From an uncultured Planctomycetaceae bacterium (GTDB lineage Bacteria > Planctomycetota > Phycisphaerae > SM23-33): a stretch of DNA of 39,053 nt. This document shows, one piece after another, positions 7,891-31,893 of the stretch. Location of the stretch: contig CAYMAP010000002.1 in the NCBI GenBank assembly GCA_964388425.1, forward strand, positions 1 through 39,053, given 5' to 3'. The notes beneath the pieces were generated by a model. It was given only the letters and a program-made list of their open reading frames with translations, searched no databases and had not been told where the DNA came from. A program made the translations under genes and the position numbers. Numbering within the stretch: the first letter of the stretch is position 1; every line of letters begins with the position of its first letter.

Positions 7891-8751
7891 TCAATACTCG
7901 ACTGGCAGCTTCTGCACTTCCGCCAGGCTGAAGACCGGCCCGTCGATGCAGACGTACTTACTGCCGATGTTGCACCGGCCGCACTTACCGATACCGCATT
8001 TCATCCGCATCTCGAAACTCACGTAGACGTCCTCGGGGGAAAAGCCCAGCTCCTCCAGGACGGGGATGGTGAACTTCAGCATCACCGGCGGCCCGCAGAG
8101 CAGGCAGATTGCATTCTCCGCCGCCGGCTCGACCTGCTCGAGCACCTGCGGGACGAACCCGACGTTTCGTTCCCAACCCTCCTCGGCCTGGTCGATCGTC
8201 AGGTGTACGTCGATGTCGTCCCGGCCTTCCCAGTCGAGGAACTCCTCGCGGTAGCACAGCTCCCCGCTGCTCCGCGCGCCGTACACGGTGACGATATCGC
8301 CCACCGTCGGGCGGACGGTCTCGTCCAGCAGGTAGCGGATCGTCGAACGCAGCGTCGTCACCGCGAACCCGCCGGAGACCAGCAGCAGGTTCTTCCCCGC
8401 GAACCGTTCGATCGGATAGCCGTTGCCCAGCGGCCCGCGCAGCCCCATCTGCCGGCCCGGCTCGGAGCTGTGCAGAGCGTTGGTCACCACGCCCGAGGCG
8501 TAACGCTTGACCGTGAACTCCACGTAGTCCTCGTCGAGCGGGCTGGAGGCGATGCCGATCGGACTCTCGCCGTAGCCCAGCAGGCTGAGCTCGGCGAACT
8601 GGCCGACGCGGAAGTCGAAGGCTCGGCGATCCTCGGGGTTGCGGAACGTCAGCCGAAACGTCCGCAGATCGCGGGCGTCGTTTTCCGGGCGGATCTGGTC
8701 GATGACGACCGGGTAAGGAATGTACGGGTTGGCCTGGTGGGCTTCGGTCAC
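7891..8751 (-). CDS. FlxA-like / HydG- or AsrB-like FAD and NAD(P)-binding oxidoreductase subunit with C-terminal [2Fe-2S] motif, 286 aa
   Basis: The GTG start at 8751 overlaps the upstream stop (GTGA). It has a ferredoxin-reductase-like fold (..FRVGQFAELSL..SPIGIASSP..LVSGGFAVTTL..) and a C-terminal CGIGKCGRCNIG..C motif. Confidence 0.75.
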   Translation of the reverse strand: MTEAHQANPYIPYPVVIDQIRPENDARDLRTFRLTFRNPEDRRAFDFRVGQFAELSLLGYGESPIGIASSPLDEDYVEFTVKRYASGVVTNALHSSEPGRQMGLRGPLGNGYPIERFAGKNLLLVSGGFAVTTLRSTIRYLLDETVRPTVGDIVTVYGARSSGELCYREEFLDWEGRDDIDVHLTIDQAEEGWERNVGFVPQVLEQVEPAAENAICLLCGPPVMLKFTIPVLEELGFSPEDVYVSFEMRMKCGIGKCGRCNIGSKYVCIDGPVFSLAEVQKLPVEY

Positions 8752-9815
8752 GTTCCGTCTCCGGGGGGCTCGGGGCGGGTCTGCTCGATCCGAGTCAGGA
8801 TGTCGCGCAGGTCGTTGTTGGCCGGGCAGGCGTTGACGCACCGCCCGCAACCGACGCAGAAAGGCCTCTGGAAGTTGCGGTAGCCGTAGTTGAACTTGTG
8901 CATGATCCGCTGCCGGCAGCGCGGGTAGCGGTCGTCTCGCGGGTTGTGCCCGCTGGCGTGCTGCGTGAAGCCCTGGAACTGGCAGGTGTCCCAGTTCCGC
9001 ACCCGAGCGCCGGTTTGTCCGCGGGTCTCCTCGGAAATGTCGAAGCAGTGGCAGGTCGGGCAGAGGAACGCACACGCCCCACAGGAAACGCACTTGTGGG
9101 CGATTTCACGCCAGTAGTCGTCATCGAACATCGCGTCGAGTTTGTCCGCCAGCACCGCCGGATCGAACCCCGCGTCGATGTGCCCCGCCGCTTCGTCGCG
9201 CAGTCGTTTCAGGGTTGCAAGGTCCTCGGCGGTCGCTTCGCCAAAGGCGTCGCAGGCGTCGATCAGCTCCGCGCCGGTCTCCGTGAGCACCTCCGCGAGG
9301 TACCGCCCCGGGGCGACCTCCGCGAGGAACACGTCCGCGCCGTCGTTCGACAGCGGGCCGATGCCCACGAGGTGACAGAAGCAGGACTCCGGGTTCTGCT
9401 CGAACGGCACGCCGACGGCCACGATGGCCGTCATCGCCCGCCGGTCGAGATACGGCTTGTCGGGGTACGGCTCGGCGGAGAAGACCGCGTCCAGCACCCC
9501 CACCGCCGCGACGTCCGCCGGGTGCAATCCGAAGAGCACCTGCGACTGCGGGGGCTTGGGGGGGATAACCTCCTCGCTGTCCCGCCCCAGCCGATAATAA
9601 AACAGCACCTCGGTCCGCGGCAGGAGGGCTTCCTTGGGGCTGTTCCGCGGGACATCACCGATCGGCGAGACCGACGAGCCTTCGGTGACCCACTGGAACT
9701 TCCGCAGCCCGTCCGTGACGACCGGCGCGAAGACCTTCCGCAGCTGGAGAATCGAATTGACGAACAATCCCAGCTTCTCGGCCTCAATCGTTTTTGTCTG
9801 CAACACGTCGCTCAT
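8748..9815 (-). CDS. FlxB-like / HydB- or AsrA-like iron-sulfur subunit, 355 aa
   Basis: The Cys motifs are CVSCGACAFLCPTCHC and CVGCGRCVNACP. It lies immediately upstream of, and is coupled to, the FAD/NAD subunit, as in sulfhydrogenase beta-gamma, AsrAB and FlxBA pairs. Confidence 0.75.
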   Translation of the reverse strand: MSDVLQTKTIEAEKLGLFVNSILQLRKVFAPVVTDGLRKFQWVTEGSSVSPIGDVPRNSPKEALLPRTEVLFYYRLGRDSEEVIPPKPPQSQVLFGLHPADVAAVGVLDAVFSAEPYPDKPYLDRRAMTAIVAVGVPFEQNPESCFCHLVGIGPLSNDGADVFLAEVAPGRYLAEVLTETGAELIDACDAFGEATAEDLATLKRLRDEAAGHIDAGFDPAVLADKLDAMFDDDYWREIAHKCVSCGACAFLCPTCHCFDISEETRGQTGARVRNWDTCQFQGFTQHASGHNPRDDRYPRCRQRIMHKFNYGYRNFQRPFCVGCGRCVNACPANNDLRDILTRIEQTRPEPPGDGT

Positions 9816-9870
9816 GTTTTCTCACAGATGCTGTTCGTGTTCTTCCTGCCTTCGGTCTCCTGCCTTCTGA

Positions 9871-10818
9871 CTACTTAAAAATATCATTCACGTCTTCGAA
9901 CGTGAAACAGCCCAGCGGCGCCTGTGTTTCCGGATCCATCCCCGCCTCGAAGCCGTCGAAGAGATTCTTGACGTCCTTGCGGAGCTTGTCGTTGTAGACC
10001 CGCAGGTCCACGCCTACCGGGCAGGCCCGCACGCAGGCTCCGCAGCCGGTGCATCGCCCGGCGAGGTGGTGCAGCCGGGTCATGTGGAAGAACATCGCGT
10101 CGGCGGGGTCGTCGGTCTTGCTCATCCACTTGGGGTTCGTCGAGTCCGCGAAGCACTCTCCGCAATAGCAGGCCGGGCAGACGTTCCGACAGGCCAGGCA
10201 CAGCACGCACTTGCCCATCTCGGCCCGGAAGGCTTCCCAGCGGGCGGCGCTGTCGGCGGACTCGAGTTCCCCGACGCGCGGTGAGAGTTCCGTGAGCATC
10301 CCCTCGCCGGTCGGCTCGGCAAGGAGGTAATCGGCGAATCGCGGGTCCTCGCGGAACTCCGGGTAGATCACGTCCGCCAGCGCCAGCCGACGCTCCTTCC
10401 CGCAGGCCTGCACGACGACGGTCTCTTCCTCGACCGAAGCGCCGGTAAAACTCTCGGTTCCCACGGCCCGGGCGACGCGGCGGCGGTCGATCACGCCGTC
10501 GCACGGAGCGCCGAGGATCACCACCTCTTCGCGCTTGACCTGCCGCTCCTGAATCAGCCCGACGATGGACCGCTCGTCGCAGCCTTTCGCGACGATCGCG
10601 ACCTTCTGCCCGCGGAACTGGTGGAGGTAGTTGGCAAGGTTGTACTCGCACGTCCGGTCAAAAATCAGCCGCTCGGCCTCCTCCGGCGTGCGCGCGAACA
10701 AAGGCGTGGCCGTCAGCGGTCGGTGCCCGGCCTCGTAGCCGATCACCACCGAGACCTCGCCGTCGGCGAGCAGTTGCTTTGCGATCCGTTTGAGGTCCAC
10801 CACGTCGGCCACGTTCAT
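9871..10818 (-). CDS. FlxC-like iron-sulfur protein, 315 aa
   Basis: ORF 9871..11247 is trimmed to the ATG at 10818, which forms an ATGA overlap with mvhD. The Cys motifs are CVLCLACRNVCPACYC and CTGCGACVRACP. Its N-terminal half resembles that of the FlxB-like neighbour. Confidence 0.65.
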   Translation of the reverse strand: MNVADVVDLKRIAKQLLADGEVSVVIGYEAGHRPLTATPLFARTPEEAERLIFDRTCEYNLANYLHQFRGQKVAIVAKGCDERSIVGLIQERQVKREEVVILGAPCDGVIDRRRVARAVGTESFTGASVEEETVVVQACGKERRLALADVIYPEFREDPRFADYLLAEPTGEGMLTELSPRVGELESADSAARWEAFRAEMGKCVLCLACRNVCPACYCGECFADSTNPKWMSKTDDPADAMFFHMTRLHHLAGRCTGCGACVRACPVGVDLRVYNDKLRKDVKNLFDGFEAGMDPETQAPLGCFTFEDVNDIFK

Positions 10819-11315
10819 GCTCCCTGCTTTGCGGTTTCGTCGGCCAGCTCGGCCGGGAGGTCCCACAGCCGTTTGACCATACGATTCGCCGGGCCCAACG
10901 AACGGATGCTCTCGGTCACCTCGCGGATGACGTCGGCGAACTTCTGGCCCTCCGAGGCACTGACCCAACTGAACTGCACGCGCCCCGGCTCGAGCCCGCA
11001 GAACTCCAGCATCCGCTGGAGGACGAGGAACCGTCGGCGGGCGTAGTAGTTGCCCGTGAGGTAGTGGCAGTCGCCCGGGTGACAGCCGCTGACCAGCACG
11101 CCGTCGACGCCCTGCTGCAGCGCCCGCAGGATGAACATCGGGTTCACCCGCCCGCTGCACGGCACGCGGATGACGCGGACGTTCGGCGGGTACTGAATCC
11201 GCGAGACGCCCGCGAGGTCCGCCCCGGCGTAGCTGCACCAGTTGCACAGAAACGCCAAAATCCGCGGCTGAAACGCAGTGTCTTTCGCGTCGTGTTGTTT
11301 GCTGTTTTCTGTCAT
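10815..11315 (-). CDS. mvhD: MvhD/FlxD-type [2Fe-2S] electron-transfer protein (methyl-viologen-reducing hydrogenase delta subunit family), 166 aa
   Basis: It has the canonical motifs ILAFLCNWCSYAGAD, IRVPCSGRVNP and VSGCHPGDCHY. Confidence 0.9.
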   Translation of the reverse strand: MTENSKQHDAKDTAFQPRILAFLCNWCSYAGADLAGVSRIQYPPNVRVIRVPCSGRVNPMFILRALQQGVDGVLVSGCHPGDCHYLTGNYYARRRFLVLQRMLEFCGLEPGRVQFSWVSASEGQKFADVIREVTESIRSLGPANRMVKRLWDLPAELADETAKQGA

Positions 11316-11366
11316 GTCACACGAGTCCGGCCATTTCGCACTCCGCTTTCCACACGTCGCATTTGT

Positions 11367-14300
11367 CTACAGTTGCAGGATTTCCGCGAGGATCTGCTGG
11401 TTTGTAAAACCCCGCAGGTCCAGTGCCCCGGAGCGGCAGGCGGCGACGCACGCGCCGCAGCCCTTGCAGACGGCCGGGTTTACCTGGGCGCATTGCTTCT
11501 CATCCCGGCCGAGGCGGACTTTTTCCATCGTGATCGCCGAGTACGGGCAGATGCTCTCGCAGAGCCCGCAGGTTGCGCACTTCTCGGGGCTGCACTCGGC
11601 GATGGTGCCTTGGGTCTCGATTTCGCTTTTCTCCAGGACCGTACACGCCCGCCCGGCCGCGGCGAGGGCCTGGGCGACGGACTCGCCGGCGTTCTTGGGG
11701 TTGTGGGCCAACCCGCAGACGAACACGCCGTCCGTGGCGAACTCCACCGGCCTGAGCTTGACGTGGGCTTCCAGGAAGAAACCGTCGTCGTTGACGGGGA
11801 CCTTCAGCAACTTGCCCATCGCATCATTGGCGGGGACGTCCGGCTGAACGCCCGTGGAAAGCACCACCCAGTCGGCCGGTAACCTCACCGACCCTCCCAG
11901 CAGATCGGAGGTGACGGAAACCGCCAGCGGAAGTCCGTTCGACACGGACGGGACGTCCGTGCCACGAACAACATCCGGGAGCTGGTCATCCTCGAAGCGG
12001 ATGAACGTCACGCCCAGTTCCCGTGCGCGCTGGTAGTGTTGCTCGGCCAGGCCGTAGGTGCGGATGTCGCGGTAGAGGACCGTCACGTCCGTTTCGGGGC
12101 AACGTTCTTTCAGGGAGACGGCGTTCTGCACCGCCCGCGTGCAGCAGATTCGGCTGCACCAGGGGTGCTCGTCGCTCCGCGAGCCGACGCACTGGATCAT
12201 GACCACGCGCGATGGCGCTTCGTCGAAGGGTTCGGTTTCCTGGAGCCTCGCCAGCAGATCGACCTGCGTGATGACGCGCTCGTGGGAGGCGGCGTACTCG
12301 TCCTCGGCCGGCTCGTAGGGCTTGGCGCCCGTGGCGACGACGACAGCTCCGCAGGGCAGTTCCGTCCCGTCGGACAATTGCAGCGTGAAGTTCCCGACGA
12401 ACCCGTGGACGTCCGTGACGCTCGTCGCGGTGTGGACGGTGACGTTGGGATGGTTCCGCAGGGCCTGTTCCCATTCGGCGAGTTTCTGGCGGTAGTCCTG
12501 GCCCTCGAAGCCGCGGGGGACGTGGCGGAGGTTCCCGCCGAGCCGGTCCTCGCGTTCGATCAGGTGGACGGGGTAGCCGCGGTCGGCGATCGCCAGGGCC
12601 GCGTGCATGCCCGCGACGCCCCCACCGAGGACCGCGCCCTGCTGCTGGACGGCGACGCGCTCCGGGTGCAGCGCCTGGAGGTGCCTCGCCTTGGCGACGA
12701 TCATCCGCAGCAGGTCCCGGGCTTTTTCCGTCGCGGCCTCGGGTTCGTTCATGTGCGCCCAGGAGCACTGGTCGCGGATGTTGGCCATCACGAAGAGGTT
12801 CGGGTTCAGCCCCGCCTCGCGCAGCGTCTGCTGGAAAAGCGGCTCGTGCGTCCGCGGCGTACACGACGCGACGACCACGCGGTTGAGGTCGTGCTCGACG
12901 ATCATGTCGCGGATGTGGACCTGCGTGTCCTGGCTGCAGGTGTAGAGGTTGTCCTCGGCGTGGACGACGTTCGGCAGGGCCTTGACGTACTCGGCGACGC
13001 TGGGGACGTCGACGATCCCGCCGATGTTGATCCCGCAGTGGCAGACGAACACGCCGATTCGCGGCGGCTCGGCCGAGAGGTCCTTCTCCGGCGGGTACTC
13101 CGCCTGCCGCGTCAGCGTCCCCGTCGACTCGGCCAGCAGCCGGCCGGACTGGCACGCCGCCGCCGAGGCCTGCACGACCGTCTCGGGAATGTCCTTCGGG
13201 CCCTCGGCGACGCCGATGGCGAACACGCCCTTCCGCGAGGTCTCCATCGGCACGTCCGGGTCCGTCGCGACGAAACCGAACTCATTGACCCGGATGCCGA
13301 GCGTCCGGCAGAGGGCGCGAACCTCCGGCGGGGCCTGGAAGCCGACGCTCAGGACGACCATATCGAAGCTCTCGTGCTGCACGCCGTCGGCGGTTGCGAA
13401 GGTCAGCACGAGTTGCCCGCTCGCTTCGTCACGTTCGACGTTGCTGACCCGCGAGCGGACGAATCGCACGCCGTACTCCCGCTTGGCCCGGAGGCAGTAT
13501 TTGTCGAAGTCCTTGCCGTACGCCCGCAGGTCCATCAGGAACACCGTCGGCTGGACGCGTTTCTCGTGTTCGTGGGCGATGACGGCTTCCTTGACGGCGT
13601 ACATGCAGCAGACGCTCGAGCAGTACCCGTCGCGGCAGGAGAGGTCCCGCGAGCCGACGCACTGCAGGAAGGCGACTTTCTCGGGGACCTTGTGGTCGCT
13701 GGGGCGGACGACGTGCCCGCCCGTCGGCCCGGAGGCCGAGAGAATCCGCTCGAACTCCATGCTCGTGACGACGTCCGGCAGGCGGTTGCCGCCGAGGTCG
13801 AAGCAGGCCTGTTTTTCGTAGAGCCGCCCGCCGGGCGCGAGGATGACCGAGCCGACCTCGATGTCGCTGAACGTGGCGGTCTGGGAGTGGTCGACGGCGC
13901 GGGCCTGGCAGGCGCGGACGCACGCGCCGCAGTTGCTGCAGATGCCGCACTGCATGCAGCGGTCGGCTTCGGCGAGGGCGTCGGCTTCGCTGTAGCCCAA
14001 CTCGACCTCCTCGAAACTGTCCGTCCGGCGATCCATCGGAAGCGTGGGAATGATCTGGCGGGCGGCTTCCTTCTCCTTCCGGCCGGTCATATCCGGGTGG
14101 GCGACGCGCAGCGGGCTGACCGCCCGGGCGTGGGTCGGTTCTTCGGCGAGGTGGTGGGCGAGGTTGTCCGCGGCGTGTCGGCCGGCCGCGATCGCCTCGA
14201 TGACGCTCGCCGGGCCCGTCACGGCGTCCCCGGCGGCGAAGACGCCCGGCATGGACGTCTCCAGCGTTTCGTCGTCAACGTCCAGCGTTCCCCAGCGGGT

Positions 14301-15836
14301 GGTGGCCAGCTCCTCGCCGAGCCAGTCCAGGCCCGGCTTCTGGCCGATAGCGGGAATCAGCGCATCGCAGTCGAGGTCGAACGTCTCGCCCTCGATGGGC
14401 ACGGGCCTGCGCCGACCGGAGTCGTCCGCCGGGCCCAGCTTCATCTTCTGGCAGGTGATTTTGACAAGTTTTCCGTCGGCGGCGTGGATCGCGCAGGGAT
14501 TGGCGAGGAAGAGGAACTCCACGCCTTCTTCGATGGCGTCGTGGACTTCGTGGGCGTCGGCGGGCATCTCGGCCTGGGTGCGACGGTAGACGACGGTGAC
14601 ATCCTTGCCCAGCCGGACGGAGGTGCGGGCGGCGTCGATGGCGGCATTGCCTCCGCCGACCACCACGACCCGCCGGCCGGTCGTGTCGGACTTGCCCGAC
14701 GCGAGGTTCCGCAGGAACTCCACCGCGTCCAGGACGCCCTCGGTGGTGTCCTCGCCGTCCAGCCGGAGCTTGCTGCCGACGTGCGCGCCGACGGCCAGCA
14801 GAACCCCGGCGAACTCCTTGCGGAGCTCGGCGAGTTTGCTCTCGCGTCCGACGGCCTGGTGCGTGCGAATCTCCACGCCGAGCCTGCGGATGCAGTCGAT
14901 CTCGAAGTCGAGCTGGTCCTTGGGGAGCCGATAGTCCGGTATGCCGTAGCGCATCATCCCGCCGGGTTCGGCGAGCTCCTCGAAGACCGTCACGGGGTGG
15001 CCGGCCCGGGCGAGGTCGGCGGCGGCCTGCAGCCCGGCAGGTCCCGCGCCGATGACCGCGACCTTCTGTTCGGGGAAGGTCACCTCCGCCGGAGCGATCT
15101 GCACCTCCTCGGCGTGCTCGCGTTCCCAGTCGCAGATGAACCGCTTCAGGTGCATGATGTCCACGGGCTGCTCGACCTGTCCGCGGGTGCAGTGAGTCTC
15201 GCAGAACCGCACGCAGACCCGGCCACAGACGGCGGGGAAGGCGATCTTGTCGCGGACGATCTCCAGGGCTTCGGCGTACTTCTTCTGGCGGATCAGCGCG
15301 ACGAAGCCCTGCACGGGCACGTCCGCGGGGCAGGCGTGCTGGCAGGGCGGTTCGCCGGCCTTCTGGATGGTGTAGACGTTCGGCACGCCCTGGGCGTAGG
15401 GGCGGAAGATGGCCTTGCGTGCGGTCTGGCCTTCCTCGTATTCGTTGGGCAGGCTTACCGGGCAGACCTCTTCGCAGTCGCCGCAGCCGGTGCAGGCCTC
15501 GGGGTCGACGTAGCGGGGCTTGTGGCGGATCCGCGCGGTGAAGTGCCCGGCCGAGCCAGTCACGGACTCGACCTCGCAGTAGGTCAGCAGTTCGATGTTC
15601 AGGTGCCTCCCGGCCTCGACGAGCTTCGGCGAGAGGATGCACATCGAGCAGTCATTCGTGGGGAAGGTCTTGTCCAGCCGGGCCATGTGCCCGCCGATGG
15701 AGGGGTCCGATTCCACGAGGTAGACCTTCTGGCCGGAGTCGGCGAGGTCCAGGGCCGCCTGGATGCCGCCGATGCCGCCTCCGACGACCAGCACCGCCCC
15801 GATGTTCGGTTTGCCGCTGTCTGCGTTTCGGATCAT
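11367..15836 (-). CDS. Giant HdrA-GltD/NfnB-HdrA fusion flavo-iron-sulfur protein (HdrL-type), 1489 aa
   Basis: ORF 11367..16193 is trimmed to the ATG at 15836, an ATGA overlap. There are two HdrA signatures (CVGSRD..CSSVCC at aa 726-744 and CVGSRS..CSRICC at aa 1216-1232) and three dinucleotide folds (VVGGGIGG, VIGAGPAG, VLGGGVAG). A GltD/NfnB-like module spans about aa 160-560 (CQHACP..GRVCVRFCE..C, GGMMRYGIPDYRLPK, VVVGGGNAAIDAA, GVFAAGD). An HdrA N-domain motif VCHCGINIGG lies at aa 931-940, and 4Fe-4S motifs lie at the C-terminus. Confidence 0.85.
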   Translation of the reverse strand: MIRNADSGKPNIGAVLVVGGGIGGIQAALDLADSGQKVYLVESDPSIGGHMARLDKTFPTNDCSMCILSPKLVEAGRHLNIELLTYCEVESVTGSAGHFTARIRHKPRYVDPEACTGCGDCEEVCPVSLPNEYEEGQTARKAIFRPYAQGVPNVYTIQKAGEPPCQHACPADVPVQGFVALIRQKKYAEALEIVRDKIAFPAVCGRVCVRFCETHCTRGQVEQPVDIMHLKRFICDWEREHAEEVQIAPAEVTFPEQKVAVIGAGPAGLQAAADLARAGHPVTVFEELAEPGGMMRYGIPDYRLPKDQLDFEIDCIRRLGVEIRTHQAVGRESKLAELRKEFAGVLLAVGAHVGSKLRLDGEDTTEGVLDAVEFLRNLASGKSDTTGRRVVVVGGGNAAIDAARTSVRLGKDVTVVYRRTQAEMPADAHEVHDAIEEGVEFLFLANPCAIHAADGKLVKITCQKMKLGPADDSGRRRPVPIEGETFDLDCDALIPAIGQKPGLDWLGEELATTRWGTLDVDDETLETSMPGVFAAGDAVTGPASVIEAIAAGRHAADNLAHHLAEEPTHARAVSPLRVAHPDMTGRKEKEAARQIIPTLPMDRRTDSFEEVELGYSEADALAEADRCMQCGICSNCGACVRACQARAVDHSQTATFSDIEVGSVILAPGGRLYEKQACFDLGGNRLPDVVTSMEFERILSASGPTGGHVVRPSDHKVPEKVAFLQCVGSRDLSCRDGYCSSVCCMYAVKEAVIAHEHEKRVQPTVFLMDLRAYGKDFDKYCLRAKREYGVRFVRSRVSNVERDEASGQLVLTFATADGVQHESFDMVVLSVGFQAPPEVRALCRTLGIRVNEFGFVATDPDVPMETSRKGVFAIGVAEGPKDIPETVVQASAAACQSGRLLAESTGTLTRQAEYPPEKDLSAEPPRIGVFVCHCGINIGGIVDVPSVAEYVKALPNVVHAEDNLYTCSQDTQVHIRDMIVEHDLNRVVVASCTPRTHEPLFQQTLREAGLNPNLFVMANIRDQCSWAHMNEPEAATEKARDLLRMIVAKARHLQALHPERVAVQQQGAVLGGGVAGMHAALAIADRGYPVHLIEREDRLGGNLRHVPRGFEGQDYRQKLAEWEQALRNHPNVTVHTATSVTDVHGFVGNFTLQLSDGTELPCGAVVVATGAKPYEPAEDEYAASHERVITQVDLLARLQETEPFDEAPSRVVMIQCVGSRSDEHPWCSRICCTRAVQNAVSLKERCPETDVTVLYRDIRTYGLAEQHYQRARELGVTFIRFEDDQLPDVVRGTDVPSVSNGLPLAVSVTSDLLGGSVRLPADWVVLSTGVQPDVPANDAMGKLLKVPVNDDGFFLEAHVKLRPVEFATDGVFVCGLAHNPKNAGESVAQALAAAGRACTVLEKSEIETQGTIAECSPEKCATCGLCESICPYSAITMEKVRLGRDEKQCAQVNPAVCKGCGACVAACRSGALDLRGFTNQQILAEILQL

Positions 15837-16324
15837 GTCTGCGTTTCCTTCCGGATCGCTTCGATGGTCGTTTCGCAGGTCGCGGGGTTGTCGATGAGCT
15901 GTTGGACGAGCGCGCGGCGGGTCTGCTGGGCGAATTCGTCGAGCCGGCGGACGTTCTCCCATCGGTCGGCGGGGACGAAGCCCTCCGCGATCGCCATTTC
16001 TCGCAGGGCGCGCATCACGTCGCGGAACTTGACGTTCTGGGGGCACTGGCTGGTGCAGGCGTAGCACTGCACGCACCGCCAGAGGACCGGGTCGGAGAGG
16101 ACTTCTTTGCGCATGCCCAGGAGGACCTGGCGGATGATTTTGCGGGGGTTGAACTCGCTGTCGATGGCGGCGACGGGGCAGGCCGCGGTGCACGTGCCGC
16201 AGGAGAAGCAGAGCGTGACGTTCTGCCCGCCGGGGTGGGCGGCGACGTCGTATTTGAACTGCGGGTCGAGCTGTGTCGGGTCGATCGGATCGGCGGTCGG
16301 GGGGCTCGGCGTTGTCGGAGTCAT
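15833..16324 (-). CDS. HdrC-like 2x[4Fe-4S] protein, 163 aa
   Basis: ORF 15833..16963 is trimmed to the ATG at 16324, which forms an ATGA overlap with the metF stop. The motifs are CFSCGTCTAACP and CVQCYACTSQCPQNV, in an HdrC-like arrangement and length. Confidence 0.7.
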   Translation of the reverse strand: MTPTTPSPPTADPIDPTQLDPQFKYDVAAHPGGQNVTLCFSCGTCTAACPVAAIDSEFNPRKIIRQVLLGMRKEVLSDPVLWRCVQCYACTSQCPQNVKFRDVMRALREMAIAEGFVPADRWENVRRLDEFAQQTRRALVQQLIDNPATCETTIEAIRKETQT

Positions 16325-17307
16325 GCTACAGCCTTTCCGTCTTTGTCGGGGGCGTCGGGTGCGGGCAGGTCGGGTCGCGGGAGCAGGCCGGCGCGGTCGA
16401 GGATTTCCGGCACGCGTTTTTCCCATTCGATGGCCATCAGGTGGATACCCGCGACACCCTCGGTGTTGCGGAGGCGGTCGATCTGTTCGAGGCAGATCGT
16501 GATGCCTTCTTCCGCGCCGTCCTCGGCGGCGTCGAGGCGTTTGAGATATTCCTCCGGCACGGTGATGCCGGCGACGTGGCTGGCCATGTACTGGGCCATG
16601 CGGGCGCCCTTGAACGGCGTGAGCCCGGCCATGATGTAGCACTGCTCGTGCAGCCCGAGGTTGCGGACCTCGGCCATCCAGGCGTCGAAGCGCTCCATGT
16701 CGTAGATGCACTGGGTCTGGATGAAGTCCGCGCCGGCTTCGACCTTGCGAGCGAGTCGCTGGGCGCGGTAGTCCAGGGGCGTGGCGAAGGGGTTGGCGGC
16801 GGCGCCGATGAACAGGCGGATGGGCACGACGTCGGATTTTTTGGTGTTGCGGAGTTCCTCGCCGTTGATGAACTTCCCCTCGCGCATCGCCGCGGCGGTG
16901 CGGAGGAGTTGGATGGAGTCGAGGTCGTAGACGTGGCGGGCGGTGGGGTGGTTGCCGAAGCACTGGTGGTCGCCGGTCAGGCAGAGCAGGTTGCGGACGC
17001 CGAGGCAGTGGGCGCCGAGGAGGTCGGCCTGGATGGCCAGGCGGTTGCGGTCGCGGCAGGTCATCTGCATGACCGGTTCGAGCCCGCGGTCGACGAGCAA
17101 CTTGCTGACGCCGACGGAACTGATGCGGACGATGGCGGTCTGGTTGTCGGTGACGTTGACGGCGTCGACGGCTCCACGGAGGTACTCGGATTTCTTGTCG
17201 ACGACCGAGATGTCGGCGGACTTCGGCGGGCCGAGTTCCGCGGTGACGGCGAAGCGGCCGGCCGCGAGAGTGCGTTCGAGATTGCTGCCTGATTTCAGTT
17301 CGCTCAT
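16321..17307 (-). CDS. metF: Methylenetetrahydrofolate reductase, acetogen/anaerobe MetF type, 328 aa
   Basis: The product reads ..FAVTAELGPPKSAD..AVNVTDNQTA..QMTCRDRNR..NLLCLTGDH..FIGAAANPF..ADFIQTQCIYD. A MetV gene lies directly upstream. Confidence 0.9.
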   Translation of the reverse strand: MSELKSGSNLERTLAAGRFAVTAELGPPKSADISVVDKKSEYLRGAVDAVNVTDNQTAIVRISSVGVSKLLVDRGLEPVMQMTCRDRNRLAIQADLLGAHCLGVRNLLCLTGDHQCFGNHPTARHVYDLDSIQLLRTAAAMREGKFINGEELRNTKKSDVVPIRLFIGAAANPFATPLDYRAQRLARKVEAGADFIQTQCIYDMERFDAWMAEVRNLGLHEQCYIMAGLTPFKGARMAQYMASHVAGITVPEEYLKRLDAAEDGAEEGITICLEQIDRLRNTEGVAGIHLMAIEWEKRVPEILDRAGLLPRPDLPAPDAPDKDGKAVA

Positions 17308-17322
17308 GGAAAGTTCCTGGTG

Positions 17323-17997
17323 CTATTCGTCCAATACCGCGATGTCTTCGCGCGTGAGTTTTCGGGGTCGTCCGTCGTGCATTTTCGACCAGTCACGTGG
17401 GTCCTGGGCGGCGGTGAGGATGTCGAGCTGGTCGAGGGCGGTCAGGCGGTCGATGATCTTCGCCCAGCCGCACTCGATGTCGTCGGTGTCGACTTCGCAC
17501 ATGCCGTCGGCGGACCCGCCGCAGGGGCCGTTGCAGAGGCTCTTGCTGCACTGGCTGACGGGGCAGACCCCGCCGAAGATCCCGAGCTTGCAGTCCCCGC
17601 AGCCGAGGCAGGCTTCCGACCAGAGGCCGGCCCCTTCGTTGATGCCCATCATCTGCGTGTTCAGGGCGGGGTAGACGGGGAGGTTCTCGAAGCGGCGTGC
17701 GGCGAGTTGAACGCCCACGCCGCAGGCGGTGGAGACGATGGCGTCGGCCGGGCCGGGGAGGTCCTCGCCGGCGTCGAAAAATTCCACGTCGCACTGGCGT
17801 TCGAGGGTCTGTTCGGCGACGTTTTCGAAGTCTCCGCTGAGTCGCAGCAGGGAGGCGAGTGTGGCGACTTCGCGTTGTCCGCCGGCGTTGCAGACGCTGA
17901 CGCAGGTCTCGCAGCCGAGCACGAGGATGTTCTTGTGGCCGTGGTCGGTGAGATATCCGCGGACTTCGTCGATCGGTTTTTGTGTGGCTACGATCAT
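17323..17997 (-). CDS. metV: MetV (methylene-THF reductase C-terminal-domain-like Cys-rich small subunit), 224 aa
   Basis: ORF 17323..18468 is trimmed to the ATG at 17997, an ATGA overlap. The motifs are LGCETCVSVCNAGG.., ..CLGCGDCKLGIFGGVCPVSQCSKSLCNGPCGG... and CGW. It is adjacent to metF. Confidence 0.85.
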   Translation of the reverse strand: MIVATQKPIDEVRGYLTDHGHKNILVLGCETCVSVCNAGGQREVATLASLLRLSGDFENVAEQTLERQCDVEFFDAGEDLPGPADAIVSTACGVGVQLAARRFENLPVYPALNTQMMGINEGAGLWSEACLGCGDCKLGIFGGVCPVSQCSKSLCNGPCGGSADGMCEVDTDDIECGWAKIIDRLTALDQLDILTAAQDPRDWSKMHDGRPRKLTREDIAVLDE

Positions 17998-19652
17998 GGT
18001 GTGGTGCTTTCGGCGTTCGGCTCTCGGCCATCGGCGGAGAGCAGGTCGATGAGGCGGTGTGTTTCGGTGGCGATGAGGCTGCCCCAGGCGAGGCGGCTGG
18101 CGTCGAAACCGGCGGCGGTTAATTGCCGTTTCAGGCGGACGAGGCGTTTTTCCGCCCGCGTGGGGCCGTCGAGGTACTGGCAGGCGTCTTCGTTGCAGGT
18201 CAGGACCAGTACGCGGTCTGCGCCGGCTTCGAAGGCGGCCAGGACATTGCGGGGGTCGACCTGCGAGGCGCAGGGGACGCGGACGAGGTGGGTGTTTTTC
18301 GGGAGCCCCAGGCCCTGCTCGGCAGCGGCTTCGGCGGCGGGGTGGGCGGAGTTTTCGCAGGCGAAGACGACGGTCCGGCCGGGCTGGAAGTCGGCGCGGA
18401 GCTGCGGGTCGTCGTAGCCGGGGAGGGTGATGGCCTGGGCGGGGCACTCCGCGGCGCAGAGGCCGCAACGCTGGCAGGCGACGGGTGCGATACGGGCGGC
18501 CTGGTCGGCGGGGTCGAAGTCGATGGCGGCATGCGGACAGAGCCGCAGGCAGGTCAGGCAGGCCACGCAGGTCTCAGCGTCGACTTCGGCGGCTCCGCCG
18601 GGCAGTGTCCAGGTTTCCCCGACCAGCAGGTCCGCGACGTGGCCCGCGGTCAGGGCTGACTCGCGTCGTACGGCTTCGAGGTCGGCGTTGAGGTTCTCGG
18701 CCCCGAGGGCGAAGACGCCGGGGCGGGAGGTTTCCGTCGGGAGTTGCCAGACGTTCTCGCCCCGGCCGGTGGCTTTTCGGCAGCGGAAGATCGCCAGCAG
18801 GTCGTCCAGGGCGGTCGCCGGCAGGAGGTCGGCGGCGACGAACAGGTCGAACGTGCCCCGCAGGACCCGGCCGAGTTCGAGGTCATGTGCGGCGAGGGCG
18901 ACGCCGTCGGATTCTTCGCCGACTGTGGGCAGGCCGTCGTATCGGCAGAGTTCCACGCCGGCGGCGCGGGCGGCGCGGTAGACGCGCTCCAGCCCGGGCG
19001 AGCTGACGCGGACGTGCTTGCAATAGATGCGGATGCGCTGCGAGCCGCGCATTGCGAGGTAGCGGGCGGCGGCGAAGACGGTGGCGGTGGTCATCCGCCC
19101 CTGCTGGGCGACGGCGTCGGTGAGCAGGGCGACCGAGCGGGGGATGTAGCCCTTGCGGACGTTGAGCATCAGCCCGGGCAGGGTGGTGGCCCGGCGGGAG
19201 GTGTCCAGCCCGACGTCCTCCGGACGGGCGGGGGTGAACGGCTCGGGGGCGAGGACGACGGCCCCGGCAGGCAGTTCGATGGAGTTTTCTTCGCTGCGGA
19301 GCGTGACGCGGAAGTTCCCGGCCTGGCCGGTGACGCGGATGACGGCGGTGCCGGTCAGCACGTCGACGCGGTCGGATTGTTCCAGCCGTCGGGCGAGGTT
19401 CGCCAGGGAGTCGTCGAAGTCGGCGGGAACTTCGGCGTCGACGGCGGCGAGTTCGGCGAGGAAGCCCACCATCGCGCCGGTCAGGTCGTCGAGGGGCTTG
19501 TCCGCCGGGCAGGCGAGCGTGACGGCGGTGCCGCGGTCGGCCAGTTGCAGGGCGGTCAGGACCGCCGAGACGCCCGAGCCCACCACCAGTGCCCGCTGCG
19601 TGACGGGGATGGTGATCTCCGGGGGAGTCGACTGGGAGGCGGGTTGGATCAT
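17994..19652 (-). CDS. Degenerate HdrA-like protein with 2x[4Fe-4S] and a C-terminal MvhD-like domain, 552 aa
   Basis: ORF 17994..20336 is trimmed to the ATG at 19652, an ATGA overlap. It has a Rossmann-like VVGSGVSAV. The HdrA CVGSR/CC cysteine signature is absent (SVALLTDAV..TTATVFAAARY). The motifs CVACLTCLRLCP and CQRCGLCAAECP are present. The MvhD-like tail is VVFACENSAH..VRVPCASQVDP..LVLTCNEDACQY. Confidence 0.7.
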   Translation of the reverse strand: MIQPASQSTPPEITIPVTQRALVVGSGVSAVLTALQLADRGTAVTLACPADKPLDDLTGAMVGFLAELAAVDAEVPADFDDSLANLARRLEQSDRVDVLTGTAVIRVTGQAGNFRVTLRSEENSIELPAGAVVLAPEPFTPARPEDVGLDTSRRATTLPGLMLNVRKGYIPRSVALLTDAVAQQGRMTTATVFAAARYLAMRGSQRIRIYCKHVRVSSPGLERVYRAARAAGVELCRYDGLPTVGEESDGVALAAHDLELGRVLRGTFDLFVAADLLPATALDDLLAIFRCRKATGRGENVWQLPTETSRPGVFALGAENLNADLEAVRRESALTAGHVADLLVGETWTLPGGAAEVDAETCVACLTCLRLCPHAAIDFDPADQAARIAPVACQRCGLCAAECPAQAITLPGYDDPQLRADFQPGRTVVFACENSAHPAAEAAAEQGLGLPKNTHLVRVPCASQVDPRNVLAAFEAGADRVLVLTCNEDACQYLDGPTRAEKRLVRLKRQLTAAGFDASRLAWGSLIATETHRLIDLLSADGREPNAESTTP

Positions 19653-20767
19653 GCGGGCACCTCGCGGAGGTCGGCGGCGATGGCGCCTGCGGCGGCGCGG
19701 GCCTGGGCGATGGCCTGGGCGAGGTCCATGGGTCCCCTGCAGGCACCGGCGAGGTAGACGCCGTCGCGGTCGGAGAGTCCCGCGAGGTTGGCGAGCCTGG
19801 GCTGGAAGAAGCCCTGCGGGTCGGTCGCGATGCCGAGGCGTGCGGCGAGTTCGGCGGCGTCGGGGTTGCAACGCATGCCGATGGACAGCACGACGAGGTC
19901 GAACGTCTCGGTCTGGTCGGCGGTGGTCTGCTGGTCTTCGTAGAAGACGGTGACGCGGTCTTCGGGGGCGGCTTCGAGGCGGTACGGGCGGGCCTTGAGG
20001 AAGCGGACGGCCTGGCGGGTCTCGGCGAGGAAGGTTTCGAAGTCCCGCCCGAAGCGCTGGAGGTCCATGTAGAAGACGGTCAGGTCGGTTTCGTCGCGGA
20101 GGTGTTTCAGCAGGCGTGCCTGTCGGAGGGCGTAGGCGCAGCAGACGGTCGAGCAGTAGTCGGTCTGCTGGGGGCCGCGGTGGGTCTGTTCGGTTCGCGA
20201 GCCGACGCACTGGATAAAGGCCAGTCGGTCGGGGGCCTTGCCGTCGGAAGGGCGCAGGATCGGCTTGCGATCGCCGAGCATGGCCGCTTCGAGGTCGGCG
20301 GCGGTCAGGACGTTGGGCAGCCGGCCGTAGTTCCATGCGCGGTCGGTGGCGGCGTCGTAGGGCTCGAAGCCGGTGGCGAGCAGGACGGCGTCGGCGTCGA
20401 GCGCGTCCGGTGCGTTGTCGGGGGAGTCCAGTTCGACGGTGAATCGCCGGCCGTTACTGCCCGGCCGGAGGGCGCGGAGTTCCGTGTGGGTGTGGACGGT
20501 GATGCCGTCGGTCTGCCGGAAGGCCCGTCGGAGGAGGTTCTGGGCGAGGCAGACGTTGCAGCGAAGGCAGTGGTCGGTGGCCTTGCAGGAGAAGCGTGCC
20601 GCCCTGCCGCCGGGACATTCGCTGCGTTCGGCGAGGTGGACTTCGCACCCGGCGTCACGGAGCGACAAGGCCGCTGCGGCACCGGCAGGACCCGCACCCA
20701 AAATGAACACCCTCCCGAAAACCTCGTCGAGGGGGCGTTGACAGATGTCGATGGATCGAAGGTACAT
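19649..20767 (-). CDS. hdrA: HdrA-like FAD-dependent oxidoreductase core (no ferredoxin domains), 372 aa
   Basis: It carries the motifs VFILGAGPAGAAAA, FIQCVGSR..YCSTVCCAYALRQA and GVYLAGACRGPMDLAQAIAQA. It is the first gene of the redox operon. Confidence 0.8.
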   Translation of the reverse strand: MYLRSIDICQRPLDEVFGRVFILGAGPAGAAAALSLRDAGCEVHLAERSECPGGRAARFSCKATDHCLRCNVCLAQNLLRRAFRQTDGITVHTHTELRALRPGSNGRRFTVELDSPDNAPDALDADAVLLATGFEPYDAATDRAWNYGRLPNVLTAADLEAAMLGDRKPILRPSDGKAPDRLAFIQCVGSRTEQTHRGPQQTDYCSTVCCAYALRQARLLKHLRDETDLTVFYMDLQRFGRDFETFLAETRQAVRFLKARPYRLEAAPEDRVTVFYEDQQTTADQTETFDLVVLSIGMRCNPDAAELAARLGIATDPQGFFQPRLANLAGLSDRDGVYLAGACRGPMDLAQAIAQARAAAGAIAADLREVPA

Positions 20768-27163: not shown

Positions 27164-27958
27164 CTACAGTTCGAACTCCATGCCCTCGGGGTGGACGATG
27201 AACCCTTCCCGCAGGAGTCCGTCGGCGGGGTCGTAGGACAGGTCCCGCCCGTTCAGGTCGATGATCCGGCAGCCGGCTTCGAGAGCGACGGCGGCCCCCG
27301 CGCCGGTATCCCAGATATTCGTCGGGCCGTGACGGGGATAGATGTGGGCGGCTCCTTCGGCGACGGCGCAGAGTTTCAGGCTGCTGCCGCGGCTGGTGGT
27401 CTCGGAGATGTCGTTGCGTTGCAGAAAGGCTTCGGTCTCGGGGGAGAGGTGGCTTCGGCTGGCGACGGCGGAGCGGGGACGCGGGGCGGAGGTCGCCTGG
27501 AGCGGCACGGGCGGCGCCTGCCCCTCTTGGCGGTACGCCCCGCCGCCGAGGACCGCATACCAACTCGTCGCCAGGGCCGGTGCATGGACCACGCCCAGAA
27601 CCGGGCGGGCCTGTCGGACCAGGGCGACGTTGACCGTATACTCCGAAATCCCTTTGACGAACTCTTTCGTGCCGTCCAGCGGGTCGATCAGCCAATAGGT
27701 TTTCGGCGATTCGTCGAGAAACGCCTCGACATCCCCTTCTTCGGACAGGACGGGCAGGGGTGGCGCAAGCCCGGCCAGTCCCGCGGTGAGACAGTCGTGG
27801 CTGGCGCGGTCGGCGCGGGTCAGGGGCGAACCGTCGGCTTTGTCCTGGACGTCCAGGGATTCGCGGGCGACGGCGAGGATCGCCATCCCGGCCGATCGGG
27901 CCAGCTCCAGGCAGGGGCCCAGCAGGGCCTCCAACGTCGTGTCATCGGGAGTGTTCAT
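27164..27958 (-). CDS. cysQ: 3'(2'),5'-bisphosphate nucleotidase CysQ (PAP phosphatase), 264 aa
   Basis: ORF 27164..28093 is trimmed to the ATG at 27958. It has the inositol-monophosphatase-family motifs LSEE, WLIDPLDGTKEF and IWDTGAGAAV. Confidence 0.8.
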   Translation of the reverse strand: MNTPDDTTLEALLGPCLELARSAGMAILAVARESLDVQDKADGSPLTRADRASHDCLTAGLAGLAPPLPVLSEEGDVEAFLDESPKTYWLIDPLDGTKEFVKGISEYTVNVALVRQARPVLGVVHAPALATSWYAVLGGGAYRQEGQAPPVPLQATSAPRPRSAVASRSHLSPETEAFLQRNDISETTSRGSSLKLCAVAEGAAHIYPRHGPTNIWDTGAGAAVALEAGCRIIDLNGRDLSYDPADGLLREGFIVHPEGMEFEL

Positions 27959-27989
27959 GCCCGCATGATACCCCCGCCTCGAGGATTTG

Positions 27990-28952
27990 TCACCCGCCCG
28001 ACGTTGCCTGATCCCTCCGGGTGAGGAACCAGTCGATGGTCCGCCGCAAGCCGATCTCGAACGGGACCTCAGCCTGGAAGCCGAAGCGATCATTCGCGCG
28101 GGTCACGTCGAGGCAGCGTCTCGGCTGGCCGTCGGGTTTGGAGGGGTCCCAGACGATCTCGCCCTCGTAACCGGTCATGTCACGGATGAGTTCAGCTAGG
28201 TCGCGGATGGCGATTTCAAACCCCGCCCCGAGATTGACCGGGGCCGGGTCGTCGTAGCGTTCCGTCGCCAGGGCCAGCCCACGGGCGCAGTCCTCGACGT
28301 AAAAAAACTCCCGGCTGGCGCTGCCCGTGCCCCAGACCTCGACGGTCGGCTCGCTGCGCTGTTTGGCCTCGACGAACTTGCGGATCAGCGCGGGGATGAC
28401 GTGGCTGGTTTCGAGGTCGAAATTGTCGCCCGGCCCGAACAGGTTGACCGGCAGGAGATAAATCCCGGGGAACCCGTACTGCTGCCGGTAGGCCTGGAGC
28501 TGGACCAGCAGGGCCTTCTTCGCCACGCCGTACGGCGCGTTGGTTTCCTCCGGATAGCCGTTCCAGAGGTCGTCTTCCCGGAACGGGACGGGGGTGAACT
28601 TGGGGTAGGCGCAGATCGTGCCGACCTGCACGAATTTCGCGAGTTTGCCGCAGCGTCTGCCCTGCTCGATCAGATGCAGCCCCATCGCCATGTTGGCGAA
28701 AAAAAAACGTCCCGGGTTCGCCCGGTTCGCCCCGATCCCGCCGACCTCCGCAGCCAGATGCAGGACAACGGTCGGCTGGAGGTCCTCATACATCCGCGCG
28801 ACGTCGGTTTCGCGCGTCAGGTCATACTCCGCCGACCGGGGGACAAGCAGATGGCTCCCGTCGACGCCTCGGCTGCGAAGTTCCCGCAGCAGGTGCTGTC
28901 CCAGAAATCCTGCCCCGCCGGTGATCACGATGCGCTGTTTTGTCAGATCCAC
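27990..28952 (-). CDS. fcl: GDP-L-fucose synthase (GDP-4-keto-6-deoxy-D-mannose 3,5-epimerase/4-reductase), 320 aa
   Basis: It has a GTG start. The product reads [16 protein letters not shown] (YxxxK), ..[22 protein letters not shown]...SHVIPALI, and it is adjacent to gmd. Confidence 0.88.
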
Positions 28953-29035
28953 GGCTTCGTTCCTTTTCAGTACGACCGGTGGTGTAGCTCATAGCCCGGG
29001 CATGCCCGAAGCCGATTCTCGCCCCAACGCCGGCT

Positions 29036-30052
29036 CTACGCCTTCGACTTGCGATGTTCAGCCAGGATGCGTTCTTCTTTGGCCAGCGCCCAGTCGTGAT
29101 CGACCATCATGTGGATGAGGTCCTTGAACAGGACCGCCGGTTCCCACCCGAGCTTTTCGCGTGCCTTGGCGGGGTTGCCCATCAGGAGGTCGACTTCACT
29201 GGGGCGGATGTATCGCGGGTCGATTTCGACGTAGTTCTTCCAGTCCAGGTCGACCAGCCCGAAGGCCTCGTCGAGCAGGTCGCTGATGCTGTGGGTCTGG
29301 CCGGTGGCGATGACGAAATCCTCGGGTTCGTTCTGCTGGAGCATCCGCCACATCGCCTCGACGTAGTCTCCGGCAAATCCCCAGTCGCGTTTGGCGTGGA
29401 GGTTGCCTAGGTACAGCTTGTCCTGGAGACCTTCGCGGATGCGCGTCGCGGCGCGGGTGATTTTGCGGGTGACGAACGTTTCGCTTCGGCGGGGGCTTTC
29501 GTGGTTGAACAGGATGCCATTGACGGCGAAGAGGTCGTAGGCCTCGCGGTAGTTGACGGTCTGCCAGTAGCTGTAGACTTTCGCGCAGGCGTAGGGGCTG
29601 CGGGGGTGGAAGGGGGTGGTTTCGCTCTGGGGGGTCTCGACGACCTTGCCGTACATCTCGGAGGACGAAGCCTGGTAGAACCGGGTGATGAGTCCGAGGT
29701 CGCGGATGGCTTCGAGCAGGCGGAGCGTGCCGACGGCGTCGACCTGGGCGGTGTAGACGGGCTGGTCGAAACTCACCCGCACGTGCGACTGGGCGGCGAG
29801 GTTGTAGATTTCATGCGGGGTGCATTTGCTGAGCACCTGCCGAAGCCCAGCCCCGTCCGTTAGGTCGCCGTAGTGCAGGAACAGGCGGTCGGCGTCCTGG
29901 GGCTTGGCGTAGAGGTGGTCGATCCGTTCCGTGCCGAACGTGCTCGACCTGCGGATCAGGCCGTGCACCTCGTAGCCCTTGCCCAGCAGCAGTTCCGTGA
30001 GGTAACTGCCGTCCTGCCCGGTAATGCCTGTGATTAATGCCCGTTTGGCCAT
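29036..30052 (-). CDS. gmd: GDP-mannose 4,6-dehydratase, 338 aa
   Basis: The product reads [59 protein letters not shown]. Confidence 0.92.
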
Positions 30053-30212
30053 TGATGACTCCTTTCGGGATATCCTTACTATCGGACGAAGGTCGGGCGG
30101 TGTCTACAGTCTCTGCAACATCGGCGGTGCAGAACCATCCCGGCTGGTGCGGAGGTTGTCGCCCGGAGCGGATTGGGGTATGATGGTCAGCGTCCTATTT
30201 CGGGAAAACACC

Positions 30213-31759: not shown

Positions 31760-31893
31760 GGCGGAAAGGCAACCGGCAACAGGAAAAAGAGACAGAAACA
31801 AGAACATGCTGGGTTCCGGAGGCTTGATGCTACAAACGGAGCCCGGGATGTCCGTGTACTGTTTCCAGCATCCAACACCCAGGAACGATATTC

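Follow-up and report, generated by a model that had tools for sequence, protein, structure and literature searches.

HdrL was defined in 2009 in Desulfobacterium autotrophicum HRM2, where three such proteins (HdrL1-3) were described as Hdr/glutamate-synthase fusions whose genes are followed by mvhD (Strittmatter et al., PMC2702500). HdrL-type proteins were also seen in the proteomes of Syntrophobacter fumaroxidans (Sfum_0824) and Desulfotomaculum reducens (Dred_1327), and no protein of this type has been purified yet. Here we describe the HdrL encoded on the minus strand at positions 11367..15836 of a 39,053-nucleotide stretch of DNA from an uncultured Planctomycetaceae bacterium (contig CAYMAP010000002.1 of assembly GCA_964388425.1), hereafter called the window. 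We favour, with a probability of about 0.72, a reading in which this protein is a pseudo-dimeric HdrA with a nested NADPH unit, serving as the core of a bifurcating or confurcating methylene-tetrahydrofolate (methylene-THF) reductase that is linked to NAD(P)H and belongs to the Wood-Ljungdahl pathway. Like HdrL1-3, Sfum_0824 and Dred_1327, it is a large soluble HdrA-type protein with a GltD-like NAD(P)H region and with mvhD after its gene. Compared by description, it differs from HdrL1-3 and their named relatives in having no selenocysteine, in having MetVF in place of HdrB or Dsr genes and in its Planctomycetota host. An earlier note, made by a model from the letters of this DNA, had likened the protein to large proteins named HdrL in D. 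autotrophicum, and the 2009 paper confirms that origin of the name.

Several other described systems share parts of this design. The flavin adenine dinucleotide (FAD) domain, the HA4 cluster, the N-domain and both ferredoxin domains of methanogen HdrA (5ODC, 8RVU; MvhAGD-HdrABC) are recognisable at residue level in HdrL, and MvhD and HdrC-type partners are likewise found. However, these elements are here split asymmetrically over two fused halves, a 470-residue NADPH unit is set in the inserted ferredoxin domain, and there is no HdrB. Chadwick 2022 described fused and tandem HdrAs whose protomers complement each other, one contributing Cys197 as the missing ligand of its partner's N-domain cluster, as well as an NfnB insertion in ANME HdrAs; a 2025 study (PMC12054007) distinguished 'type II' and GltD-insert 'type III' archaeal HdrAs. 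The HdrAs of ANME-1 and Bathyarchaeota (HdrA3/4, HdrA9-11; type II/III) resemble HdrL in their complementary halves and in a GltD/NfnB unit placed inside the inserted ferredoxin domain, whereas here both principles occur in one chain. The halves also stand in the opposite order to those of ANME HdrA3/4, such that the half with Cys197 and without the N-domain comes first. The MetFV-HdrCBA-MvhD enzyme of Moorella thermoacetica likewise has a fused HdrA, which is grouped with these proteins. As for the Hdr-type methylene-THF reductase of Moorella, metF and metV are clustered with hdrA, hdrC and mvhD, a likeness in gene content, but the HdrB of the Moorella enzyme has no counterpart.

The nested unit has its own set of relatives. 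StnC (8OH5), the NfnABC large subunits (9BOV, 9N5U) and NF009410/PRK12771 proteins also carry a body-then-tail cassette inserted in an iron-sulfur (FeS) protein, although the host in StnC and NfnABC is a NuoG/FdhF-like subunit rather than HdrA. The whole length of the unit shows homology, at about 41% identity, to NfnB (4YLF/4YRY, 5JCA), GltD and the N-terminal domains of DPD, with FAD and NADPH folds and a two-cluster Fer4_20 domain; unlike NfnB and GltD, it is permuted, with the RCxxC segment after the PPCxxxCP body, and it appears to have no canonical NfnA partner. The window HdrL combines both known HdrA principles and is typical of its family, which is very widespread; it is not a new system. 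Proteins of this type are common in anaerobes, and the uncultured lineages that have them number in the hundreds, among them Planctomycetota, Chloroflexota, Bacillota, Thermodesulfobacteriota, Asgard archaea and Thermoplasmatales.

The hdrL open reading frame (ORF) is a real, intact and correctly read single gene for an iron-sulfur flavoprotein. It runs from an ATG start to a TAG stop over 1489 codons without an internal stop, and it contains no in-frame TGA, as the earlier note had stated when it reported no selenocysteine in this copy. The start codon overlaps the stop codon of the upstream HdrC-like gene (ATGA) and is preceded by a Shine-Dalgarno-like box (GGAAGGA). The window has a G+C content of 65.6%, and long spurious ORFs in other frames are common; the hdrL frame is the one with family matches throughout its length, and an identical 1489-residue protein was called on a JGI contig. 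No membrane helix is apparent in HdrL by a crude test, in which the highest 19-residue Kyte-Doolittle mean was 1.64 (aa 14, in the Rossmann beta-alpha-beta).

That so long an ORF merely merges separate hdrA, gltD and hdrA genes through an assembly or annotation artefact is hardly credible. The DNA comes from a metagenome contig, which made the question a fair one, but no evidence for such an artefact was found. Logan contigs from three microbial-mat metagenome runs tile the ORF with zero indels. A single contig (13590-15961) covers the ORF start and both junctions of the insert, a second (12935-13619) covers the junction between modules 1 and 2, and another study's run, on a different sample, also spans two of these junctions. 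More than 120 full-length homologues of about 1480 residues are among the matches listed, relatives are encoded in 530 species-representative genomes, and the same architecture is present in all 80 loci and about 90 full-length proteins examined. Furthermore, the insert divides a ferredoxin motif pair, which is sensible only within one chain. As far as these data go, an artefactual join is ruled out, so that the assembly-level fusion named in the earlier note as a ground for refutation does not apply. Two runs also showed a joint that connects 12345 with 14625; its shorter side matches over only 20 letters, with 29 foreign letters in between, and it was treated as a contig from another organism or a paralogue.

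Searches with Pfam and NCBIfam models reveal two HdrA-type regions and one GltD/NfnB-type region, which agrees with the earlier proposal of two HdrA modules, the first of which holds a GltD/NfnB-like NAD(P)H unit. The GltD/NfnB-like character of the middle, on which that proposal depended, is evident from NF009410 (551 bits against a cut-off of 516, aa 158-663, collinear), from Fer4_20 on aa 161-241 and from Pyr_redox_2 on aa 258-552. The scores for NF040770 HdrA2 (979 bits, cut-off 1100), NF041778 HdrA (688 bits, cut-off 1400) and TIGR01316 are below the cut-offs of these models. Among solved structures, HdrA chains (8RVU, 5ODC, 7BKB) are the matches at either end of the protein, and its middle is matched by the NfnABC/StnC large subunits (9BOV, 9N5U, 8OH5), NfnB (4YLF, 5JCA), GltD and DPD. 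Every motif quoted earlier was found where it had been placed: VVGGGIGG (aa 17-24), CTGCGDCEEVCP (aa 115-126) and CVGSRD..CSSVCC (aa 726-744) in module 1, and VCHCGINIGG (aa 931-940), CVGSRS..CSRICC (aa 1216-1232) and a C-terminal pair of CxxCxxCxxxC motifs (aa 1420-1467) in module 2. Residue conservation was evaluated in 88 full-length homologues, in which 41 predicted cluster cysteines and four dinucleotide-binding glycine motifs are invariant or near-invariant. The conserved ligands predict three FAD and nine [4Fe-4S] clusters per chain, where the fourth ligand of the ninth predicted cluster is not a cysteine.

The two HdrA halves are complementary. Module 1 is interrupted by the nested unit and comprises an N-part (aa 1-160, 15357..15836) and a C-part (aa 632-925, 13062..13943). 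Its N-part holds the Rossmann start for FAD (G19xG21xxG24), the Cys63/Cys66 loop, the counterpart of Cys194/Cys197 in HdrA, and the opening half of the inserted ferredoxin domain (C115, C118, C121, C125), all of which are invariant in the homologues. The C-part holds the second half of that domain (C633, C636, C639, C643), the remainder of the TrxR-like FAD domain and HA4-type cysteines (C726, C739, C743, C744). On alignment to solved HdrA, module 1 lacks the HdrA N-terminal domain and its C-terminal ferredoxin domain. Module 2 (aa 926-1489, 11370..13061) aligns through its residues 1-229 to HdrA 2-231 and through its residues 232-561 to HdrA 313-638. It has the N-terminal cluster domain (C932, C934, C967, C992), an FAD fold (G1071xG1073xxG1076), HA4-type cysteines (C1216, C1227, C1231, C1232) and the C-terminal 2x[4Fe-4S] domain (C1420-C1467). 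The same alignment shows that the inserted ferredoxin domain of about 80 residues is absent from module 2, which also has no cysteine at the Cys194/Cys197 positions; the Cys197-equivalent position is never a cysteine among the homologues. The second module had been called essentially canonical, a description that fails on both of these absences. The FAD fold and the HA4 cluster motif (CVGSR..C..CC) are kept in both modules and are invariant, and judged from these motifs every accessory element of an HdrA dimer occurs just once in the two modules taken together.

A module tree, one of the checks that had been proposed, places the two halves apart with 100/99 support and recovers congruent sub-clades, which indicates that the halves derive from one old fusion of diverged paralogues. 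A recent internal duplication of HdrA was rejected: the modules share only 31% identity over 285 residues, score far higher against methanogen HdrA than this, and form separate, congruent clades.

The nested unit is an insert of about 470 residues (aa ~161-631) that lies between the two CxxCxxCxxxC motifs of the HdrA inserted ferredoxin domain. Its position follows from the alignment of aa 14-159 to residues 153-298 and of aa 632-898 to residues 300-569 of HdrA (8rvu_a), which puts the insertion point at HdrA residues 298/300. The earlier note had placed the unit roughly where HdrA carries this domain; the region was right, and the insert is actually inside the domain, between its cluster motifs. 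Likewise, the earlier boundaries of aa 160-560 (14157..15359) were correctly converted between residues and nucleotides but are too narrow, because the unit reaches about aa 631. The insert consists of an NfnB/StnC-like body (aa 161-566, 14139..15356) and a tail (aa 590-631, 13944..14069). The body starts with EPPCQHACP and carries cluster cysteines that form the second half of a Fer4_20 cluster domain (C165, C169, C208, C212, C216), followed by an FAD fold (G263xG265xxG268) and an NADPH fold (G394xG396xxA399 with Y417-R418-R419). The tail, which ends in ..DSFEEVELGYSEADALAEADRCMQCG and includes the invariant C627 and C630, corresponds to the canonical N-terminus of NfnB and GltD.

This order of segments points to a circular permutation. 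We moved aa 590-631 ahead of aa 162-566 and realigned the resulting sequence to canonical chains. The de-permuted insert gives single collinear alignments to Thermotoga maritima NfnB (4ylf_B, 14-459), Pyrococcus furiosus NfnI-L (5jca_L, 12-472), GltD (6s6s_G, 19-465) and DPD (58-500). Each of the six canonical chains in the comparison scores higher after the rearrangement: 4ylf_B reaches 352 bits (325 before), 5jca_L 340 (322), 5vj7_A 310 (292), 6s6s_G 238 (212), 2vdc_G 234 (214) and DPD 144 (122), a gain of about 18-26 bits. The new junction, RCMQCG joined to EPPCQHACP, matches NfnB RCLQCPTHPCVSGCP, and by this alignment the insert is therefore circularly permuted inside its C-x2-C-x4-C-x3-C motif relative to NfnB, GltD and DPD. 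Such a permutation brings the two ends of the insert together, which is a requirement for domain insertion. The best matches of the insert are the StnC and NfnABC large subunits, in which the tail likewise follows the body, with 400 bits versus 325 for NfnB. As a tentative and rather doubtful idea, the permuted order of the GltD cassette might be what allowed it to be spliced into FeS hosts such as HdrA, StnC and NfnABC. We regard the permutation and its tie to StnC-type cassettes as a new detail. The Stn structure paper (StnC, 8OH5) has no word of permutation, and no mention of NfnB circular permutation was found in the literature searched, an absence that is no proof of its being unreported.

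The nested unit has GxGxxA in 87 of the 88 homologues and the YRR motif (Y417-R418-R419) in all 88, as in NfnB, and from these residues, with a criterion taken from the literature, we infer a specificity for NADPH. Two variants of the unit were encountered. A class of HdrL of about 1660 residues has a duplicated NAD(P)H subdomain: in these proteins (L005:9001-14004 and P0012-P0060, about 1650-1690 residues), aa 366-534 of the query match twice. The Planctomycetota example of this class has an HdrC-like gene only, with no MvhD, Flx-like or MetVF genes nearby. One HdrL orthologue (L074:5010) has an in-frame TAG in the NfnB-like body, aligned to K356, which could be due to a pseudogene, a sequencing error or recoding.

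A structure model is consistent with this anatomy. AlphaFold2 was applied to aa 1-925 with a 72-sequence alignment and yielded a model with a mean pLDDT (predicted local distance difference test) of 90.3 and a pTM (predicted template modelling score) of 0.87. In Foldseek comparisons the insert superposes on 9bov_A (root-mean-square deviation 1.6 A over 474 columns) and on 4ylf_B with a TMt of 0.82, and the flanks superpose on HdrA 8rwn_A with a TMt of 0.93; the flank alignments run across the insert and comprise about 899 columns. The superposition that had been suggested earlier thus fits the flanks to HdrA and the insert to NfnB. The only weak internal segment of the model is aa 57-63, in the Cys63/66 loop, which would need module 2 to become ordered.

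The flavin sites of the two HdrA modules differ in a bifurcation signature. E356 and K409 have been reported as key residues for bifurcation by HdrA (PMC12054007), which is the criterion used here. Their equivalents in module 1 are E696 and K749, which are invariant in all 88 homologues. In module 2 the positions are L1195 and Q1237; the E/K pair is kept there in 70 of the 88 family members, and one or both residues are lost in all eight nearest relatives of the window HdrL. By this signature, only the module-1 HdrA flavin site appears competent for bifurcation in this clade, and the earlier description of the protein as having two flavin sites of the bifurcating type does not apply to this copy. 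The loss of these residues from module 2 in the Planctomycetota clade is a new detail.

These features permit an electron path to be drawn by analogy with that of the HdrA dimer. We infer that the chain would fold as an intramolecular, asymmetric HdrA 'heterodimer', in which Cys66 of module 1 would complete the N-domain cluster of module 2. The exit that serves ferredoxin in methanogen HdrA would be hard-wired through four clusters to the NADP(H)-reactive nested flavin, so that the branch through the N-domain cluster and the inserted ferredoxin domain would end at this flavin and not at free ferredoxin. The nested flavin would act as a plain hydride entry or exit port, as in StnC. Bifurcation or confurcation is predicted to occur at the module-1 HdrA flavin (E696/K749), because the homologous domain of StnC is a plain NADPH input and bifurcation occurs elsewhere in that system. 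In this clade the flavin of module 2 is probably a scaffold or a relay only.

An alternative assignment makes the nested NfnB-like flavin a second bifurcating site, with the HydG/AsrB-like protein of the operon described below as its NfnA equivalent, which would amount to a built-in Nfn transhydrogenase in series with the bifurcation at HdrA. The bifurcating flavin of NfnAB is indeed the FAD of NfnB, to which the insert aligns over the full length of that protein; a FAD/NAD/[2Fe-2S] protein of the PyrK/NfnA superfamily is conserved in the operon; and a similar idea was proposed by Chadwick et al. for ANME-1. However, the closest solved relatives by both sequence and fold are the StnC and NfnABC large subunits, which have the same permuted order and the higher score given above, and the StnC domain only passes NADPH electrons to a bifurcating FMN (flavin mononucleotide) elsewhere. 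The FAD/NAD subunit scores 160-200 bits on HydG/AsrB models versus 64 on the NfnA/SudB-type NF004862, and its gene is separated from hdrL by those of MvhD and two FeS proteins. We therefore consider a second bifurcating site unlikely and retain the nested flavin as an NADP(H) port.

The genomic context links this path to methylene-THF. Gene calls from JGI and hidden Markov model (HMM) searches define a translationally coupled ten-gene operon on the minus strand (7891-20767), with mostly overlapping or near-abutting stop and start codons. Its first five genes encode an HdrA-like core (372 aa, 19649-20767), an HdrA-like FAD-ferredoxin-MvhD fusion (552 aa, 17994-19652), MetV (17323-17997), MetF (16321-17307; the pair was recognized in searches with PF02219 and PF12225) and an HdrC-like protein with 2x[4Fe-4S] (163 aa, 15833..16324). 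The last of these scores 90.9 bits on TIGR03290 HdrC, below the cut-off, and its gene overlaps its neighbours by stop and start codons on both sides. After hdrL come MvhD (166 aa, 10815..11315; PF02662, E=5e-58), whose gene is 51 nucleotides downstream, an FeS protein (315 aa, 9871-10818), a HydB/AsrA-like Fer4_22 protein (8748-9815) and a HydG/AsrB-like FAD/NAD/[2Fe-2S] protein (7891-8751). The last two have HMM hits below cut-offs, and the last three genes form a Flx-like NAD(P)H module (7891..10818). The first two genes represent a split second HdrA pair. The 372-residue protein is module-1-like, with CVGSR..CSTVCC and a Cys-rich DHCLRCNVC at the Cys197 region, and the 552-residue protein is module-2-like, with its HA4 cysteines lost and an MvhD-like end fused. 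Neither gene calls nor HMM searches found a CCG-domain (HdrB) gene in the operon, and HdrB is also absent from the MetVF-type loci examined. Because the operon is without HdrB, we propose that an HA4 cluster would pass electrons to the HdrC-like protein and on to MetV/MetF, which would replace HdrB. MvhD would dock on the C-terminal ferredoxin domain of module 2 and link it to the Flx/HydBG-like NAD(P)H module.

A survey of 83 other HdrL loci, with denominators that differ between features, places this arrangement in a wider family. MvhD is encoded downstream of HdrL in 60 of 75 loci, an HdrC-like gene is upstream in 39 of 68, and where the flank is long enough, roughly one locus in two continues with FeS, HydB-like and HydG-like genes. 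Of 67 loci, 27 have MetVF as the partner module, 10 have HdrB and 2 have both. FTHFS or AcsE is encoded within 9 kb in many loci, including those of the closest relatives, and the MetVF arrangement recurs beside FTHFS or AcsE in Planctomycetota, Chloroflexota, Bacillota and Calditrichales. The nearest relatives of the window HdrL are from metagenome-assembled genomes (MAGs) of Phycisphaerae/Planctomycetaceae (70-73% identity); relatives in Desulfobacteraceae/Desulfobacterales MAGs are 47-49% identical, and one Thermodesulfobacteriota relative has the order HdrC-HdrB-HdrL-MvhD-FeS. The swap between MetVF and HdrB partners around a constant HdrC-HdrL-MvhD-Flx-like core is a new detail.

The loci with HdrB raise the question of whether HdrL might instead serve a disulfide-reducing Hdr, acting on DsrC-like or other heterodisulfides as has been proposed for sulfate reducers, with HdrB encoded elsewhere and the adjacency of MetVF incidental. 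An HdrB (CCG) gene is directly upstream of HdrL in 12 of 75 loci, mainly in Thermodesulfobacteriota, Syntrophia and Nitrospirota, and both S. fumaroxidans and D. reducens express their HdrL-type proteins during sulfate reduction. For the window this is quite improbable. Its metV, metF, hdrC-like and hdrL genes are joined by overlapping or near-abutting codons in an operon that has no CCG-domain gene; the MetVF arrangement recurs in the four lineages named above; and the window carries assimilatory sulfate-activation genes and no dissimilatory sulfate genes. In its Phycisphaerae-like planctomycete host, the HdrL-MetVF operon most likely has a methylene-THF reductase role.

Some points weigh against a methylene-THF reductase wired in this manner. 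No Wood-Ljungdahl gene is present elsewhere in the 39,053-nucleotide window, whose remaining genes are for sulfate activation and sugar nucleotides. The label Flx-like is our assumption for the downstream genes, made with reference to Ramos et al. 2015 and to HydB/HydG/AsrAB hits below cut-offs. A model with one bifurcating site may fail across the family, given the 70 homologues that keep both signature residues in module 2. In addition, the role of E356/K409 is taken from the literature, and no biochemical study of an HdrL or of a type II/III HdrA is known.

The methylene-THF reductase step is energetically the least understood in the Wood-Ljungdahl pathway, and the second electron acceptor of the Hdr-type enzyme of Moorella is still sought. 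As a tentative and rather doubtful extension of our reading, in which the ferredoxin exit would be occupied by an NADP(H) flavin and a separate Flx/HydG-like subunit would be connected through MvhD, the HdrB-less HdrL-MetVF system might even be a ferredoxin-independent bifurcating reductase, in which NADH from the Flx arm reduces methylene-THF and the released energy drives reduction of NADP+ at the nested unit. If this extension were true, the acceptor that is sought would be NADP+ in the widespread variant described here. The residue-level wiring plan comprises a predicted pseudo-dimer of unlike halves, an NADPH cassette that is permuted and placed at the ferredoxin site and, in this clade, one flavin site predicted to be competent for bifurcation; it turns the question of which partners are coupled into defined assays and mutants.

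Additional observations were made among the surveyed loci. TGA occurs at cysteine positions in none of 80 HdrL orthologues, a check for selenocysteine that had been recommended earlier, and such codons were seen only in neighbouring HdrA paralogues. In five loci of Thermodesulfobacteriota or deltaproteobacteria (L034:10433, L064:19847, L068:6408, L069:20160, L072:20599), an HdrA-type paralogue beside HdrL has an in-frame TGA aligned to Cys66, which probably encodes selenocysteine at the inter-protomer cluster ligand. A Phycisphaerae relative of 71% identity has a DDE transposase gene between the FeS and HydB-like genes (L002:15498-16697, also represented as L036) in an operon that is otherwise syntenic. 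In Promethearchaeota (L037, L039, L043, L047, L075), genes for HydG-like, HydB-like, FeS, MvhD, HdrA-like, HdrB and HdrC proteins are located downstream of HdrL on the opposite strand, and this convergent Asgard arrangement is conserved across the five MAGs.

Two other regions of the window are recorded here. Pfam gives no match at E<=1e-5 for three consecutive long ORFs on the plus strand (35317-38840; 455, 317 and 464 aa), some of which may be non-genes at 66% G+C. The region 27164-33810 is a sulfate-activation cluster with genes for a CysQ-like inositol monophosphatase, for an APS kinase that is extended at its N-terminus by about 95 residues, for CysD and for a CysN-APS kinase fusion, such that two APS-kinase domains are found within 4 kb; genes for a GDP-mannose dehydratase and an epimerase adjoin.

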